IMG/VR virus record: IMGVR_UViG_2531839585_000005
Location: 1-7,397 of that record
DNA: 7,397 nt
Direction: 5' to 3' (one strand)
DNA from: a virus
Taxonomy: Duplodnaviria; Heunggongvirae; Uroviricota; Caudoviricetes
This document shows, in pieces, positions 1 to 7,179 of this stretch (position 1 is the stretch's first letter; every line of letters begins with the position of its first letter). The translations under genes were made by a program, and so were the position numbers. The notes below the pieces were generated by a model. That model saw only the letters and a program-made list of their open reading frames with translations, had not been told where the DNA came from and did no database searches.

Positions 1-151
1 CTGGATGACATCCGGGCGGGACGCATTGAGCGCGCCATTTCACGCTGTCGCAATATCTGGGCGTCCCTGCCGGGTGCCGGTTACGGTCAGCGTGAGCATT
101 CACTGGAAAAACTGGTCACCGTCTGGCGTACCGCGGGGCGTACCGGCTTAA
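1..151 (+). CDS. K: Phage endolysin, C-terminal part (lambda R / P2 K-type lysozyme); 5' end lies outside the window, 3' end uncertain
   Basis: Frame +1 from position 1 reads ...DDIRAGRIERAISRCRNIWASLPGAGYGQREHSLEKLVTVWRTAG..., matching the conserved C-terminal motif of lambda R-type endolysins (NIWASLPGAGYGQ.EH). Frame +1 has no stop until 229-231 and runs into the lysA ATG at 166. TAA codons sit in frame +2 at 149-151 and 158-160, so a 1-bp indel near 133-140 has probably displaced the true stop. Not in the ORF track because the start is outside the window. Confidence 0.65.
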   Translation, partial: WMTSGRDALSAPFHAVAISGRPCRVPVTVSVSIHWKNWSPSGVPRGVPA

Positions 152-165
152 ACGGAGTAAACACC

Positions 166-589
166 ATGAAGAAATTATCCCTTTCACTGATGCTGAACGT
201 GTCGCTGGCGCTGTGCTGGCACTGTCCCTGATTTACCCGCAGAGCGTGGCCGTCAGTTTTGTCGCCACCTGGGCGATTCTGGGACGGTTATCTGTGTGGT
301 TGCCGGTGGTGTCGGCGTGTATGCCACGGAGTATGTACTTGAACGCTACGGGCGGGAGCTGCCACCGGAATCGCTGGCCGTGAAGATTGTCACGTCGCTG
401 TTTTTGCAGCCGGTGCCGTGGCGCAGGCGGTCAGTGGCTCTGGTAGTGATGGTGGCGACGTTTATCTCGCTGGTCGCTGCCGGGTGGATTTTTACCGCGC
501 TGATTTATCTCGTGGCATCGGTGTTCTTCCGGCTGATACGTACGGCCTGCTGTCAGCGTTTTGAGGGGCGGGAACCATGTCAAAGCTGA
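166..589 (+). pseudogene. lysA: lysA-like lysis-timing membrane protein, frame-disrupted as sequenced (needs all three + frames)
   Basis: ATG at 166 sits 7-8 nt downstream of GGAG and opens MKKLSLSLMLNVSLAL in frame +1, which stops at 229-231. The continuation ...VLALSLIYPQSVAVSFVATWAILG is in frame +3 (about 213-283). The remainder, VICVVAGGVGVYATEYVLERYGRELPPESLAVKIVTSLFLQPVPWRRRSVALVVMVATFISLVAAGWIFTALIYLVASVFF..., is frame +2 and corresponds to track ORF 296-589. Hydrophobic segments fit a small membrane protein. The stop overlaps the lysB start. Position after the endolysin matches the P2 order K-lysA-lysB-lysC. Confidence 0.6.
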
Positions 590-1020
590 TGATTGTGCTG
601 GTTGTGTTGTTATCACTGGCGGTGGCCGGTCTGTTTCTGGTGAAACACAAAAATGCCAGCCTGCGCGCCTCGCTGGACAGGGCGAACAATGTCGCCAGCG
701 GGCAGCAGACGACCATCACCATGCTGAAAAATCAGCTTCATGTTGCCCTCACCAGGGCAGACAAAAACGAGATGGCGCAGGTGGCACTGCGTCAGGAACT
801 GGAGAACGCCGCGAAGCGTGAAGCACAGCGCGAGAAAACCATCACGAGGTTACTTAATGAAAACGAGGATTTCCGCCGCTGGTATGGCGCTGACCTGCCT
901 GATGCTGTGCGCCGGTTGCACCAGCGCCCCGCCTGCACCGACGCCAGTGATTGTCCACAACGCCTGCCCGAAAGTGAGTCTTTGCCCGATGCCGGGCAGC
1001 GACCCAGAGACGAACGGTGA
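577..1020 (+). CDS. lysB: LysB, Rz-like inner-membrane spanin (i-spanin)
   Basis: Intact 147-codon ORF. N-terminal MSKLMIVLVVLLSLAVAGLFLV is a single type-II membrane anchor, followed by a charged, helix-prone periplasmic domain (EMAQVALRQELENAAKREAQREK). GAGG lies upstream of the ATG. Sits in the P2 lysis cassette position and carries an embedded out-of-frame lipoprotein gene. Confidence 0.8.
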   Translation: MSKLMIVLVVLLSLAVAGLFLVKHKNASLRASLDRANNVASGQQTTITMLKNQLHVALTRADKNEMAQVALRQELENAAKREAQREKTITRLLNENEDFRRWYGADLPDAVRRLHQRPACTDASDCPQRLPESESLPDAGQRPRDER

Positions 1021-1147
1021 TTTAAGTGCCGATATCCGGCAGCTTGAGAACGCGCTGGCGCGCTGTGCCAGCCAGGTAAAAATGATTAAACACTGTCAGG
1101 ACGAAAACGATGCTCAAACCCGACAGCCTGCGCAGGGCGCTGACTGA
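857..1147 (+). CDS. lysC: LysC, Rz1-like outer-membrane lipoprotein spanin (o-spanin), starting inside lysB in the +1 frame
   Basis: ATG at 857 preceded by GAGG. Product MKTRISAAGMALTCLMLCAGCTSAPPAPTPV... has a lipoprotein signal peptide with a lipobox-like LCAGC and a proline-rich mature region. It is 96 aa, overlaps the lysB 3' end out of frame and extends past the lysB stop, which is the classic Rz/Rz1 overlapped architecture. The track ORF 740-1147 is the same frame with an upstream alternative start. Confidence 0.75.
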   Translation: MKTRISAAGMALTCLMLCAGCTSAPPAPTPVIVHNACPKVSLCPMPGSDPETNGDLSADIRQLENALARCASQVKMIKHCQDENDAQTRQPAQGAD

Positions 1148-1571
1148 TGCCGTCACGGTGCTGAAAACACCGAATGCTGCGGATATTCGTGGATACGGGA
1201 GTATTGCCTCCACGCTGGCGGCGTCGTTGTCATTCGAAAAGCGTTACACGCTCAATGTCATTGTGACCGACTTTACCGGTGATTTTGACCTGCTCATCGT
1301 GCCGGTGCTGGCGTGGCTGCGGGTAAATCAGCCCGACATCATGACCACCGACGCAGGTCAGAAAAAGGGCTTCACGTTTTATGCAGACATCAACAATGAC
1401 AGCAGCTTTGATATCAGCATCAGCCTGATGCTGACCGAGCGAACGCTGGTCAGTGAGGTGGACGGCGCGCTGCATGTGAAGAATATCCCGGAACCTCCGC
1501 CGCCGGAGCCGGTCACCCGCCCGATGGAGCTGTATATCAATGGCGAACTCGTGAGTAAGTGGGATGAATGA
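1110..1571 (+). CDS. R: Tail completion protein R
   Basis: Intact 153-codon ORF MLKPDSLRRALTDAVTVLK...FEKRYTLNVIVTDFTGDFDLLIVPVLAWL...PEPPPPEPVTRPMELYINGELVSKWDE, recognised as P2 gpR-family. Overlaps the lysC 3' end. Its stop is fused to the S start (ATGAATGA). Confidence 0.85.
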   Translation: MLKPDSLRRALTDAVTVLKTPNAADIRGYGSIASTLAASLSFEKRYTLNVIVTDFTGDFDLLIVPVLAWLRVNQPDIMTTDAGQKKGFTFYADINNDSSFDISISLMLTERTLVSEVDGALHVKNIPEPPPPEPVTRPMELYINGELVSKWDE

Positions 1572-2016
1572 GTTTAAGCGTTTTGAAGACCGGCTGACCG
1601 GACTGATTGAGTCGCTGTCACCGTCAGGGCGTCGGCGACTGAGTGCCGAACTGGCGAAACGTCTGCGGCAGAGTCAGCAGCGTCGGGTGATGGCACAGAA
1701 AGCCCCGGATGGCACACCCTATGCGCCACGCCAGCAGCAGAGCGCCAGAAAAAAGACCGGTCGCGTTAAGCGAAAAATGTTTGCGAAACTTATCACCAGT
1801 CGTTTTTTGCATATCCGCGCCAGCCCTGAACAGGCATCAATGGAGTTTTACGGCGGGAAGTCACCGAAAATAGCCAGTGTGCATCAGTTCGGTCTGTCGG
1901 AAGAAACCCGGAAAGACGGTAAGAAAATTGATTATCCGGCGCGTCCTCTGCTCGGCTTTACCGGTGAGGATGTGCAGATGATTGAAGAGATTATCCTGGC
2001 TCACCTCGACCGTTAG
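1564..2016 (+). CDS. S: Tail completion protein S
   Basis: Intact 150-codon ORF MNEFKRFEDRLTGLIESLSPSGRRRLSAELAKRLRQSQQRRV...PLLGFTGEDVQMIEEIILAHLDR, recognised as P2 gpS-family. Start overlaps the R stop, consistent with translational coupling. Confidence 0.85.
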   Translation: MNEFKRFEDRLTGLIESLSPSGRRRLSAELAKRLRQSQQRRVMAQKAPDGTPYAPRQQQSARKKTGRVKRKMFAKLITSRFLHIRASPEQASMEFYGGKSPKIASVHQFGLSEETRKDGKKIDYPARPLLGFTGEDVQMIEEIILAHLDR

Positions 2017-2082
2017 TTGTGCCATTCCCGACACCTCATCGTTACATTGCCGCCGGTATGACCCGGCGGCATCCTTCCCGTT
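2017..2082 (+). promoter_or_regulatory. S-V intergenic region with an 8-bp GC-rich hairpin (2049-2056 / 2063-2070) and a TGT-N10-ACA partial dyad (2018-2033); candidate late-operon promoter or RNA element for the V-W-J-I-H-G operon
   Basis: GCCGCCGG (2049-2056) and CCGGCGGC (2063-2070) are exact reverse complements around a 6-nt loop, with no following T-run. TGT at 2018-2020 and ACA at 2031-2033 resemble the TGT-N12-ACA Ogr-box of P2 late promoters, but the spacing is 10 nt rather than 12. In P2 a late promoter lies upstream of V. Confidence 0.3.
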
Positions 2083-2710
2083 ATGAACACTCTCGCAAAT
2101 ATCCAGGAACTCGCGCGCGCACTGCGCAACATGATCCGCACCGGCCTTGTCGTCGAAACCAACCTTAAAGCCGGTCGCTGCCGTGTGCAGACCGGCGGCA
2201 TGTGCACCGACTGGCTTCAGTGGCTGACTCGTGCCGGGCGTTCGCGCACTGGTGGGCACCTTCCGTGGGGGACAGGTGCTGATTCTGGCCGTGGGCGGTG
2301 AACTCGACACGGCGTTCGTTCTGCCGGGGATTTATTCCGGTGATAACCCCGCGCCGTCTGCGTCGGCGGATGCCCTGCATATCCGTTTCCCTGACGGGGC
2401 GGTGATTGAGTATGAACCCGAAACCAGCGCACTCACGGTAAGCGGAATTAAAACGGCCAGCGTGACGGCTTCTGATTCTGTTACTGCCACGGTGCCGGTG
2501 GTCACGGTGAAAGCATCAACCCGCGTACCCTGGACACACCGGAGGTGGTTGCACCAACAGGCTGATTACGGCACGCTGGAAGTGCAGAAGGGCGGGACGA
2601 TGCGCGGCAACATTGAACACACCGGCGGTGAACTCTCATCAAACGGTAAGGTACTGCATACCCATAAACACCCCGGCGACAGCGGCGGCACAACCGGGAG
2701 CCCTCTATGA
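2083..2710 (+). pseudogene. V: Baseplate spike / central hub protein V, frame-disrupted as sequenced
   Basis: Frame +1 ORF 2083-2301 gives MNTLANIQELARALRNMIRTGLVVETNLKAGRCRVQTGGMCTDWLQWLTRAGRSRT..., the gpV N-terminus. The continuation WWAPSVG is in frame +3, then QVLILAVGGELDTAFVLPGIYSGDNPAPSASADALHIRFPDGAVIEYEPETSALTVSGIKTASVTASDSVTATVPVVTVKASTRV is in frame +2 (track ORF 2231-2710). A second cluster at about 2525-2575 passes through frames +1 (TLDTPEVV) and +3 (CTNRLIT) before returning to +2 (GTLEVQKGGTMRGNIEHTGGELSSNGKVLHTHKHPGDSGGTTGSPL). The stop overlaps the W start (ATGA). Confidence 0.8.
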
Positions 2711-3054
2711 CAGCGCGTTATCTCGGAATGAATCGCAGTGATGGCCTGACTGTCACTGACCTTGAGCATATCAGCCAGAGTATCGGCGATATCCTGCGCA
2801 CACCGGTCGGCTCACGGGTGATGCGTCGTGATTACGGCTCGTTGCTGGCGTCAATGATTGACCAGCCGCAGACCCCGGCGCTTGAGTTGCAGATTAAGGT
2901 CGCCTGTTACATGGCGGTGCTGAAATGGGAACCCCGCGTCACCCTGTCATCCGTCACCACTGAGCGCAGTTTTGACGGGCGAATGACAGTTACGTTAACC
3001 GGCCAGCACAACGACACCGGCCAGCCACTTTCGTTAACCATCCCTGTGAGTTGA
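2707..3054 (+). CDS. W: Baseplate wedge protein W (T4 gp25-like)
   Basis: Intact 115-codon ORF MTARYLGMNRSDGLTVTDLEHISQSIGDILRTPVGSRVMRRDYGSLLASMIDQPQTP...SLTIPVS, recognised as P2 gpW-family with the expected length. Start overlaps the V stop. Confidence 0.9.
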   Translation: MTARYLGMNRSDGLTVTDLEHISQSIGDILRTPVGSRVMRRDYGSLLASMIDQPQTPALELQIKVACYMAVLKWEPRVTLSSVTTERSFDGRMTVTLTGQHNDTGQPLSLTIPVS

Positions 3055-3058
3055 AACC

Positions 3059-3949
3059 ATGCCGATTATCGACCTGAACCAGCTACCTGCACCGGATGTG
3101 GTCGAGGAGCTGGACTTTGAAACCATTCTTGCTGAACGCAAGGCGACACTGATTTCTCTTTACCCGGAAGACCAGCAGGAGGCGGTCGCCCGTACCCTGA
3201 CGCTGGAATCTGAGCCTCTCGCCAAACTGCTGGAGGAAAATGCTTATCGTGAGCTTATCTGGCGTCAGCGTGTGAATGAGGCCGCACGGGCGGTGATGCT
3301 GGCCTGTGCCGCCGGTAATGACCTTGATGTGATTGGTGCCAATTACAACACCACGCGCCTGACTATCACCCCGGCAGATGATTCGACCATTCCGCCGACA
3401 CCGGCAGTGATGGAATCTGACACCGATTATCGTCTGCGTATTCAGCAGGCGTTTGAGGCTTAAGCGTCGCCGGGTCGGTGGGGCTATCAGTATCATGGTC
3501 GCAGTGCCGACGGGCGTGTCGCGGATATTCTGTACCAGTCCGTCTCCGGCCTGCGTCACCATCTCGTGCTGTCACGTGAAAATAACGGTGTGCATCCGAA
3601 GACTGCTGGCGGGTGCGTAACGCCCTTAATGGCGAGGACGTCAGGCCGGTGGCCGACCGCGTGACCGTGCAGTCTGCCGCCATGTTGAATACCAGATAAA
3701 CGCCACGCTTTACCTTTACCCTGGTCCCGAAAGGAACCCATCCGCGCGCCGCCGTGAAAAAACTGGAAGCTAATCACGGCACAGCACCGGCTGGGGCGGA
3801 CATCCGTCTGTCTGCCATTTATGCCGCTTTGCATGTGGAAGGGTGCAGCGTGTCGAACTGGCTGCACCCTGGCCGACATCGTGCTCAACAGTACGCAGGC
3901 GTCTTTCTGTACCGAATACCGCGTCGTGACCGGAGGCTCGGATGAGTGA
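3059..3949 (+). pseudogene. J: Baseplate protein J, intact for the first ~134 codons, then heavily frame-disrupted
   Basis: Frame +2 ORF 3059-3463 gives MPIIDLNQLPAPDVVEELDFETILAERKATLISLYPEDQQEAVARTLTLESEPLAKLLEENAYRELIWRQRVNEAARAVMLACAAGNDLDVIGANYNTTRLTITPADDSTIPPTPAVMESDTDYRLRIQQAFE and then hits TAA. Downstream, recognisable gpJ segments appear piecemeal across all three + frames: YQYHGRSADGRVADI, TSPSPACVTIS, VLSRENNGV, VRNALNGEDVRPVADRVTVQSAA, VEYQINATLYLYPGPE, VKKLEA, ITAQHRLGR, DIRLSAIYAALHVEG, LADIVLNSTQASFCTEYRVVTGGSDE. The final segment is in frame with a TGA at 3947-3949 that overlaps the I start. Full-length gpJ is about 300 aa as I recall. Confidence 0.8.
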
Positions 3950-4472
3950 TTCGCGACTGCTGCCGACCGGCTCATCACCGCTTGAAGTCGCCGCCGCAAA
4001 AGCCTGTGCGGAAATTGAAAAAACGCCGGTCAGTATTCGTGAGCTGTGGAACCCGGATACCTGTCCGGCAAATCTGCTGCCGTGGCTGGCGTGGGCGTTT
4101 TCGGTCGACAGGTGGGATGAAAAGTGGCCGGAAGCGACAAAACGCGCCGTTATCCGCGATGCCTATTTCATCCACTGTCATAAAGGCACAATAGGTGCAA
4201 TCCGGCGTGTGGTGGAGCCGCTCGGCTATCTCATCAACGTGACGGAGTGGTGGGAAAACAGTGACCCGCCCGGCACCTTCCGGCTTGATATTGGTGTACT
4301 GGAAAGCGGCATCACAGAGGCAATGTATCAGGAAATGGAACGGCTGATTGCTGATGCCAAACCTGCAAGCCGTCACCTTATTGGCCTGAACATTACCCGG
4401 GACATTCCCGGCTACCTGTTCGCCGGTGGTGTGGCTTACGACGGCGATGTAATTACGGTTTATCCCGGATAA
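3942..4472 (+). CDS. I: Baseplate protein I
   Basis: Intact 176-codon ORF MSDSRLLPTGSSPLEVAAAKACAEIEKTPVSIRELWNPDTCPANLLPWLAWAFSVDRWDEKWPEATKRAVIRDAYFIHCHKGTIGAIRRVVEPLGYLINVTEWWENSDPPGTFRLDIGVLESG..., recognised as P2 gpI-family with the expected length. Start overlaps the J 3' end. Confidence 0.9.
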   Translation: MSDSRLLPTGSSPLEVAAAKACAEIEKTPVSIRELWNPDTCPANLLPWLAWAFSVDRWDEKWPEATKRAVIRDAYFIHCHKGTIGAIRRVVEPLGYLINVTEWWENSDPPGTFRLDIGVLESGITEAMYQEMERLIADAKPASRHLIGLNITRDIPGYLFAGGVAYDGDVITVYPG

Positions 4473-4482
4473 GTGAGGAATA

Positions 4483-6648
4483 ATGAGCACAAAATTCAGA
4501 ACCGTTATCACCACTGCCGGTGCAGCAAAGCTGGCAGCGGCAACCGCGCCGGGAGGGCGGAAGGTCAACATTACCACGATGGCCGTCGGGGATGGCGGTG
4601 GTAAATTGCCTGTCCCGGATGCCGGACAGACCGGGCTTATCCACGAAGTCTGGCGACATGCGCTGAACAAAATCAGCCAGGACAAACGAAACAGTAATTA
4701 TATTATCGCAGAGCTGGTTATTCCGCCGGAGGTGGGCGGTTTCTGGATGCGTGAACTTGGCCTGTACGATGATGCGGGAACTAATTGCCGTGGCGAACAT
4801 GGCCGAAAGTTATAAGCCAGCCTTGCCGAAGGCTCAGGGCGTTCGCAGACCTGCGCATGGTCATCATCGTCAGCAGTGTGGCCTCAGTGGGCTGACCATT
4901 GACACCACAACGGTGATGGCACGCAGGATTACGTTGATGACAAAATTGCAGACATGAACAGTCACGACGTCACCCGACGCCTCGCTGACCGCAAAAGGTT
5001 TTACTCAGTTAAGCATGCGACCAACAGCACGTCTGAAACACTGGCCGCAACGCCGAAAGCGGTAAAGGCCGCGTATGACTTGCTAACGGGAAATAACGCC
5101 AGGAGCCACCAAGCGCGAAAAGGCCTTGTCCAGCTCAGTAGGCCACCAACAGCGATTCTGAAACGCTTGCGGCAACGCCAAAGGCGGTTAAGACAGCGTA
5201 TGACCTTGCTAACGGGAAATACACTGCACAGGAGCCACCACGCGCGAAAGGTCTTGTCAGCTCAGTAGCGCCACCAACAGGATTCTGAAACGCTGGCTGC
5301 AACATCAAAAGCGGTGAAGTCTGCCTATGACAATGCTGAAAAACGTCTTCAGAAAGATCAGAACGGTGCGGATATTCCGGGAAAGGATACCTTCACGAAA
5401 AATATCGGTGCCTGTCGTGCTTATAGCGGCGCTTTGAGCACTGAAGCCGGAAACTGGACAACCGCTCAGTTTATTGAATGGCTGGATTCCCGTGGTGCAT
5501 TTAATCATCCGTACTGGATGTGCAAAGGCTCCTGGTCATATGCAAATAACAAAATCATTACGGATACCGGATGTGGTGATATCCACCTGGCTGGTTGTGT
5601 CGTCGAGGTCATGGGAACTAAATCTGCAATCACTATTCGAGTGACCACGCCGACAACATCAAGTGGTGGCGGTACAACCAGCGCGCAATTCACTTACATA
5701 AATCATGGGGACGGCTACTCCCCCGGCTGGCGTCGTGACTGGAATCGTCAGGGCGACGCAATGACCGGAACGATTAATCAGGATGGCGGAAGCCAGAATG
5801 CCTATATGTCTACGGCCTTATGTTCAGGCACCAGAGGCGGCAAAAAATATCTCAGAAAGTTTCGTGGTGGAGAAGGAGACACTATCTGGCATGAAACAGT
5901 ACAGGGCGGGGTAATTCGCTGGGCGACAGGAAACTATGACGCTCAGGAAGAATTATCACTCAGCTCCGCTTATGGTCTCCGTTCAAGAGGTGAGATTACA
6001 TCACTCAGTGCTAATGGTCTGCGCATTGCTTATGGCAATTATGGATTCTTTATCAGGAATGATGGCGGCAGCACATATTTAATGCTGACGGCCTCTGGCG
6101 ATAAATTAGGCACATAGAACAATTTAAGACCGCTGACTATAAATAACGCCAAGGGCGCAGTATCAATGGGGCATGGCCTGAATGTTACTGGTGATATTGT
6201 CTCAAGTACCAAAGTACGTGCCGGTAGCGGGAAAAAATTCACGGTCAGCAGCAGTAATACATCCACGAAGGAAGCCGCATTCAATTTGTGGGGAAACTCA
6301 AGTCGTCCGGTGGTGGCTGAATTAGGTGATGATGCAGGCTGGCATTTTTACAGTCAGAGAAATACAGATAACAGCATCACGTTTGCTGTTAACGGTCAGG
6401 TATCACCATCTAACTATAGTAATTTTGATTCACGCTATGTCCGGGATATCCGGCTTGGTGGTGCTGCCACATACAAACCTGCGAACAATGGCATGACATG
6501 GACACATCAGGCACCGTCCGGGTGTGTATATTCCGGCATTATTGTTCAGGATACCGGCTCAAACTCTGCCGATAACATTGGTGGCATATATTACAGACCG
6601 GTGCAGAAATACATTAACGGGACTTGGTATAACGTGGCGCAGGTATAA
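4483..6648 (+). pseudogene. H: Tail fibre protein H (mosaic). 5' third is frame-disrupted, one in-frame TAG at 6115-6117, otherwise continuous
   Basis: ATG at 4483 preceded by GAGG. Frame +1 reads MSTKFRTVITTAGAAKLAAATAPGGRKVNITTMAVGDGGGKLPVPDAGQTGLIHEVWRHALNKISQDKRNSNYIIAELVIPPEVGGFWMRELGLYDDAGT, the gpH N-terminus. From about 4778 the continuation (LIAVANMAESYKPAL, LAEGSGR, RMVIIVSSVASV, LTIDTTTVMA, then the ATNSTSETLAATPKAVK repeats) is scattered over three frames up to about 5280. From 5281 to 6648 a single frame +1 runs cleanly apart from the TAG at 6115-6117 (track ORFs 5314-6117 and 6166-6648). The C-terminus ...NFDSRYVRDIRLG...RPVQKYINGTWYNVAQV is the conserved P2-H-type tail-fibre terminus. 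Confidence 0.85.
5006..5337 (+). repeat. Three imperfect direct tandem repeats of ~126 bp inside H, encoding a repeated tail-fibre motif
   Basis: Copy 1 about 5006-5130, copy 2 about 5131-5258, copy 3 (partial, diverging) about 5259-5337. Each encodes a variant of QLSSATNS(T/D)SETLAAT(P/S)KAVK(A/T/S)AYDLANGKYTAQEATTARKGLV. The copies differ by substitutions and 1-bp indels. Confidence 0.7.
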
Positions 6649-6651
6649 TTT

Positions 6652-7179
6652 ATGCAGCATTTGATAAATATAACGGCAGGTAATCCAAAAACGGTTGAAC
6701 AATATCAATTGACAAAGGACTTTGATGTTGTCTGGTTTTTTTCAGAAGATGGTAAGAACTGGTACGAAGAACAAAAGTATTTTGCTGATGACACGATAAA
6801 AATAGCGTACGACAAAGATAATATCATCCGCTATGTGGAAAAGGATGTGACAGCTATCAGACCGGATGGATTAAGTGTGGTTGAAGTGGCGGATATTACT
6901 GCTAACCGACGGGCGGATATTTCAGGGGGCTGGATGTTTAAGGACGGCAAAGTGATTAAACGCATTTATACGGCAGATGAATTGCGGCGGCAGGCAGAAA
7001 TTCGGAAAGTCAGACTTCTTGCAGATGCTGAATCCGTGATTTTGCCGCTGGAGCGCGCTGTCAGGCTGAACATGGCAACAGATGAGGAGCGTAGCCGACT
7101 GGAAGCATGGGAGCGTTACAGCGTTCTGGTCAGTCGTGTGGATCCTGCAAATCCTGAATGGCCGGAAATGCCGCAATAA
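6652..7179 (+). CDS. G: Tail fibre assembly protein G (Tfa-type chaperone)
   Basis: Intact 175-codon ORF starting 3 nt after the H stop: [44 protein letters not shown]...[42 protein letters not shown]. The C-terminal half is recognised as the P2 gpG/Tfa family. Position immediately 3' of the tail-fibre gene fits. Confidence 0.9.

Follow-up and report, generated by a model that had tools for sequence, protein, structure and literature searches.

The tail-fiber gene H and its in-frame TAG codon

The tail-fiber gene of a P2-type module in a draft Escherichia coli genome contains a TAG codon within its reading frame, which raises the question of whether the codon is an amber mutation of the phage or a product of the assembly. 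The window, the whole stretch of 7,397 bp that was analyzed, is the entire contig APZI01000619.1 of GCA_000356865.2, the draft genome of the ETEC isolate E. coli p0305293.13. The analysis indicates with high confidence that the TAG is an assembly artifact, a chimera created by base-by-base merging of two P2-type tail-fiber haplotypes, and not an amber mutation. The codon is present in the deposited sequence and almost certainly absent from the organism.

The module is composed of P2-type (Peduovirus) late genes, namely the lysis genes and R, S, V, W, J, I, H, and G. Gene H (4483–6648, plus strand) is placed between gpI (3942–4472) and the tail-fiber assembly gene G (tfa; 6652–7179, plus strand), the position required of a P2-type gpH. 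The tfa gene is an intact ORF with a PF02413 domain, and its sequence is a mixture of variants found in the sister assemblies. Precomputed Pfam matches place PF12571 on the N-terminal 110-aa piece of gpH and PF21446 on a 267-aa piece; both the N-terminal tail-collar fiber domain and the Gp34-like trimer domain expected of P2-type gpH are present. The gene order and the Pfam domains are those of the gpH-gpG (tfa) pair in P2-like (Peduovirus) prophages of E. coli, and the window DNA is 88–97% identical to intact prophages and to Yersinia and Escherichia peduoviruses.

Unlike P2-like gpH, which forms an uninterrupted ORF of ~700–800 aa, gene H of the window is a composite broken frame called as pieces of 110, 52, 267, and 160 aa, and its N-terminal third is split between frames 1 and 2. 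The interruptions consist of 14 gaps and the one TAG, all of which are ascribed to assembly; we judge the lack of a single ORF to be artifactual.

The TAG codon occupies positions 6115–6117 on the plus strand in frame +1, in the local reading ...GGC ACA TAG AAC AAT TTA AGA.... It is preceded by an open frame of 267 codons (5314–6114), and the frame reopens for 177 codons (6118–6648). Translation of frame +1 across the site gives ...LMLTASGDKLGT-stop-NNLRPLTINNAKGAVSMGHGLNVTG..., the same as in the original prediction, whose coordinates, frame, and coding sequence on both sides of the codon are all confirmed. The description of the TAG as the single break in an otherwise continuous frame does not hold: the gene starts at 4483 and contains 14 additional frame-breaking gaps at 4782–5281.

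Sense codons in homologs and sister isolates

The intact homologous gpH proteins (729 and 773 aa) are each encoded by one ORF that crosses the codon without a gene boundary, in agreement with the earlier view that the TAG interrupts one gene. Two allele types occur at the site. E. coli 90-3040 and Yersinia phage P37 carry the type A allele, ...DKFGT-W(TGG)-N(G/S)LRPLTINNANGGV..., and the finished genomes of E. coli 120899 and 05-3629 carry the type B allele, ...DRLG(S/T)-Y(TAT)-NNLRPLIINDATGAV.... Tyr (TAT), suggested earlier as the original codon, is one of the two residues in homologs; Trp (TGG) is the second.

The P0305293.x series consists of several stool colonies from a single patient in Bangladesh, who had cholera-like ETEC diarrhoea in 2011. 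Sequencing was done at IGS on the Illumina HiSeq 2000, and Celera Assembler was used for the assembly (PMC4309559; PMC4462620), the Illumina coverage being >200x (PMC4462620). Clonal populations were reported in 10 of 12 subjects, and the mixed pair was P0299917 and P0299438, not P0305293 (Sahl et al.; PMC4462620; PMC4309559).

Assemblies of three sister isolates, p0305293.8, p0305293.3, and p0305293.7 (loci L011, L012, and L013), contain the same module, and in each the site lies within an unbroken ORF of 444 aa. Isolates.8 and.7 have the codon TGG (haplotype A), and.3 has TAT (haplotype B). The allele of a fourth isolate, p0305293.10, read from its protein sequence, is also of the W type (Trp). 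The TAG is therefore not reproduced in independent sequence of the same strain. The original prediction was to be abandoned if other sequence of the strain had a sense codon here, and this is what was found at the level of sister assemblies.

Over the rest of gpH, five isolates of the clone carry the same few variants in different combinations. The clonal isolates also display two gene contexts 3′ of tfa, as expected of two prophages. The 3′ end of the window has the context of p0305293.8 and 120899 and stops ~140 nt past its divergence from the.3/.7-type context; a contig break at a repeat boundary would give such an end. Two haplotypes and two contexts in one clone are most simply read as two P2-like prophages, which would have been merged differently in each assembly.

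Across the prophage region, the phage genes that are split also differ among the three sister assemblies. The capsid gene is called as two pieces in all three, and the terminase small subunit, L, R, V, W, J, and sheath genes are split in varying combinations. The artifact thus extends over the entire prophage in all isolates of the series. The protein fragments from the split genes of the sister isolates have been deposited in NCBI nr.

Gaps concentrated on polymorphic columns

Alignment of the window to an intact relative reveals 40 indels of 1–5 nt. All are deletions in the window and lie within positions 1–5331, with none after 5281. All affect the plus-strand module and form five clusters. 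Five gaps are found in the lysis and tail-completion genes (135–1195; at 135, 214, 283, 1168, and 1195), in the two clusters 135–283 and 1168–1195. Six are located in the baseplate gene V (2229–2569), three of them specific to the assembly of the window and three common with p0305293.7. Fifteen are located in the baseplate gene J (3456–3869), as seen in alignment to relatives and sister assemblies, and 14 gaps of 1–4 nt in the part of gpH that comprises the N terminus and the repeats (4782–5281), most of which are present in all four strain assemblies. Genes V and J are broken by these gaps in the same way as gpH.

The gaps are not randomly placed. In a panel of seven intact genomes, 20 of the 32 deleted columns are polymorphic compared with 178 of the 2,732 retained columns (odds ratio 24, p=5e-16), and the deleted columns are mostly third codon positions. 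The indels are thus concentrated where the copies differ, as in collapsed copies. The gap sets are not identical between the clonal sister assemblies, and a gap in one assembly often corresponds to two alternative bases in the others. At 2526, 2549, and 2568, p0305293.8 has C/T/T and p0305293.3 has T/C/C, and the window and p0305293.7 are gapped. At 3798, 3842, and 3868, where the window is gapped, the sister assemblies have the alternatives C/T, C/T, and G/A. At the gap at 2229, p0305293.7 lacks the middle base only. The gaps at 4781–5141 are mostly identical in all four assemblies, which fits a deterministic pipeline; taken alone, they could also fit real lesions.

Poor Sanger read ends and long-read homopolymer errors were considered as sources of clustered gaps. 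They are rejected, as the gaps lie outside homopolymers and on polymorphic columns and the data are Illumina data assembled with Celera Assembler.

The many frameshifts in V, J, and H, together with the gaps at 4781–5141 that are mostly common to four assemblies, are what a decaying cryptic prophage would display, in which the TAG would be one of many true lesions accumulated under relaxed selection. Yet the set of lesions varies from colony to colony within one clone, and the sequence outside the gaps is about 97–98% identical to intact phages. Moreover, decay does not predict that 40 of 40 indels are deletions placed on naturally polymorphic, mostly synonymous columns. True decay of the prophage is therefore very unlikely, and the assembly artifact remains the preferred explanation of both the gaps and the TAG.

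Two natural haplotypes and their alphabetical mixture

When IMG/VR was scanned for a conserved 32-mer of the window, 31 independent P2-like contigs were recovered. The codon is TGG in 14 of them, TAT in 17, and TAG in none. The 84 nt around the codon form exactly two haplotypes in these contigs, with ~30 discriminating sites in complete linkage, and no hybrid or intermediate haplotype is present among the 31. Haplotype A encodes the peptide ...DKFGT-W(TGG)-NGLRPLTINNANGGV... and haplotype B encodes ...DRLGS-Y(TAT)-NNLRPLIINDATGAV.... The corresponding k-mers are GGGACATGGAACGGT for haplotype A, GGCAGTTATAATAAT for haplotype B, and GGCACATAGAACAAT for the hybrid in the window.

At every discriminating site, the base in the window is of either the A or the B type, so two haplotypes explain all variant bases. 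The tract at 6081–6104 (plus strand) is pure haplotype A (TGG type), matching it at 10 of 10 discriminating sites. It is directly followed by a tie zone at 6104–6182 (plus strand), in which 23 consecutive A/B sites all carry the alphabetically first of the two bases (A<C<G<T), producing 14 haplotype switches in 79 nt. The window is mostly haplotype B 3′ of about position 6200. Outside the run, the alphabetically first base is found at only 47 of 104 sites, which shows that a general bias is absent. A run of 23 sites did not occur in any of 200,000 simulations of 127 sites (simulated P<5e-6). Such dense, non-biological switching and deterministic choice of base are marks of collapsed copies. 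At the codon, the alphabetical rule turns T-[G/A]-[G/T] into T-A-G. The TAG at 6115–6117 is accordingly a chimeric codon, with the A of position 2 from the TAT haplotype and the G of position 3 from the TGG haplotype.

These features bear directly on the proposal that the TAG is a real amber nonsense codon in an otherwise functional gpH, such that a suppressor host would be needed or the fiber would be truncated. The codon is one base away from the TAT or TGG of homologs and has an open frame on both sides. In this it resembles the classical sus (amber) mutations of late phage genes, which require supE or supF hosts and can place an in-frame TAG in a tail-fiber gene, one base from a Tyr or Trp codon. 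Unlike a sus mutation, the TAG of the window is not reproducible in sister isolates, the four others checked all having a sense codon. It also resides in an artifactual hybrid tract, its flanking bases being an alphabetical interleaving of haplotypes A and B. An amber-suppressor tRNA was sought in the window, where no tRNA is encoded. The rest of the gene is not intact either: 14 gaps upstream of the TAG already disrupt the gpH frame, so an amber suppressor could not give a full-length protein from the window sequence. A real amber mutation is highly improbable, and the claim of a suppressor-dependent or truncated fiber is not supported.

The hybrid tract might alternatively be a real recombinant, formed by gene conversion between the H alleles of co-resident prophages with a junction inside the codon (TA from TAT and G from TGG). 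Tail-fiber genes are known recombination mosaics, and both parental haplotypes occur in the clone. If true, the hybrid in p0305293.13 would be a natural case of inter-prophage recombination inactivating a receptor-binding protein. But recombination would need 14 switches in 79 nt, each landing by chance on the alphabetically first base, and partial hybrids are absent from the 31 natural contigs and from finished genomes. We regard genuine recombination as scarcely credible next to the merging of two haplotypes during assembly. Reassignment of TAG or programmed readthrough, for which the open frame on both sides is the one favorable point, is excluded for practical purposes, because TAG (2014–2016, plus strand) is the ordinary terminator of gene S, an intact gene of this module (150 aa in the window and likewise in relatives), the E. 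coli host uses the standard code, and homologs have ordinary sense codons at the site.

Searches for the hybrid and for both templates

A search of the GTDB representative genomes, IMG/VR, and the JGI metagenome contigs for the hybrid 29-mer, with any codon allowed at the site, gave no match. The top match of the 161-nt patch is 92.5% among 5,426 complete E. coli genomes and 93.8% among 50,697 phage records. The 267-aa and 160-aa protein products were found in a single contig, that of the window, among about 15 billion proteins. A natural third haplotype with a sense codon was considered and rejected, as none is present in complete E. coli genomes, phages, GTDB representatives, IMG/VR, or JGI metagenomes.

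A finished genome of the clone, or one holding both exact templates, was not found, and the sister contigs match finished genomes at no more than 97.9–98.7%. The sister contigs are thus mosaics themselves. The finished genome of ETEC TW10722 (loci L014 and L015) contains the TGG- and TAT-type patches in two different P2-like prophages, and thus the A and B allele types co-occur in a single natural genome. As a genome with both templates it was rejected, since one of the two allele types resides in a much more divergent P2-like phage. In one of the P2-like prophages of TW10722, the lysis cassette is divergent and the arrangement of the tail genes is inverted.

Proposed origin of the TAG

The clone yields two versions of the P2-type tail module that are about 97% identical, and the most likely source would be two co-resident P2-like prophages. 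We infer that these reside in one genome rather than, for instance, in a mixed culture. The draft assembly would have merged both copies into a single contig, with a consensus called separately for each column. The contig would follow the dominant copy wherever there was one. Where the columns were tied, as proposed for 6104–6182, the alphabetically first base would be taken, making TAG from the two sense codons. A column would be dropped wherever the aligner paired mismatching bases with gaps, leaving gaps of 1–5 nt at polymorphic sites.

At >200x coverage, exact ties among raw reads are unlikely, and an intermediate software step is assumed to have made them; pre-collapsed reads, or ambiguity codes resolved later, are possibilities. 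As an alternative to a tied consensus, the codon could have passed through the ambiguity codes T-R-K, each being resolved later to its first base. IGS assemblies of the period may have used super-read pre-collapsing (MaSuRCA); the paper is silent on this, and no weight is placed on it.

The proposed origin resembles the collapsed-repeat consensus errors of short-read drafts, in which near-identical copies are merged and variant columns are resolved independently, resulting in chimeras and spurious indels. The contig of the window is also short (7.4 kb), and it ends close to the divergence of the two contexts, as collapsed repeats do. The signatures in the window are unusually clean for an error of this kind: 23 sites resolved in strict alphabetical order, and polymorphic columns dropped.

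The clone most likely possesses intact tail-fiber genes of both the W type and the Y type, and nothing points to a suppressor host. The TAG has no biological consequence, and its value lies in a caution on draft assemblies. Artifactual protein fragments from the contig of the window and from the sister contigs are present in public databases (END27417–END27423 and the equivalents from sister isolates). Before an in-frame stop or a frameshift in a short, repeat-derived contig of an old draft is given any meaning, it should be compared with sister assemblies and with the haplotypes found in nature. Two signatures serve as quick diagnostics, namely gaps that fall on polymorphic columns and variant sites resolved in alphabetical order.

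Variation of the module among relatives

The gpH protein contains tandem 44-aa units (...ATNS(T/D)SETLAATPKAVKAAYDLANGKYTAQDATTARKGLVQLSS...), located at 4990–5300 in the window. The copy number of the unit varies among relatives, as in the 773-aa and 729-aa proteins (L001:5084-7402 and L002:5084-7270, respectively), and the window aligns to the repeat region in two registers.

The variable P2 positions, after tfa and between S and V, hold differing cargo genes among relatives. One relative (L006) has a SIR2-family gene after tfa and a gene for an ATP-binding protein between S and V. In four others (L002, L005, L008, and L009), the S–V interval is occupied by a minus-strand gene of 786 nt. In the window, nothing is inserted from the end of S (2016) to the start of V (about 2083).

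In E. coli 90-3040, a pseudogene fragment annotated as 's protein' (L003:2839-3099) overlaps the 3′ end of the tail-fiber gene. Its presence in a finished genome points to a natural mosaic or a remnant C-terminal cassette. Some tail-fiber fragments in the 90% protein clusters P0010 and P0017 are named 'sugar ABC transporter permease', which looks like a propagated misannotation.
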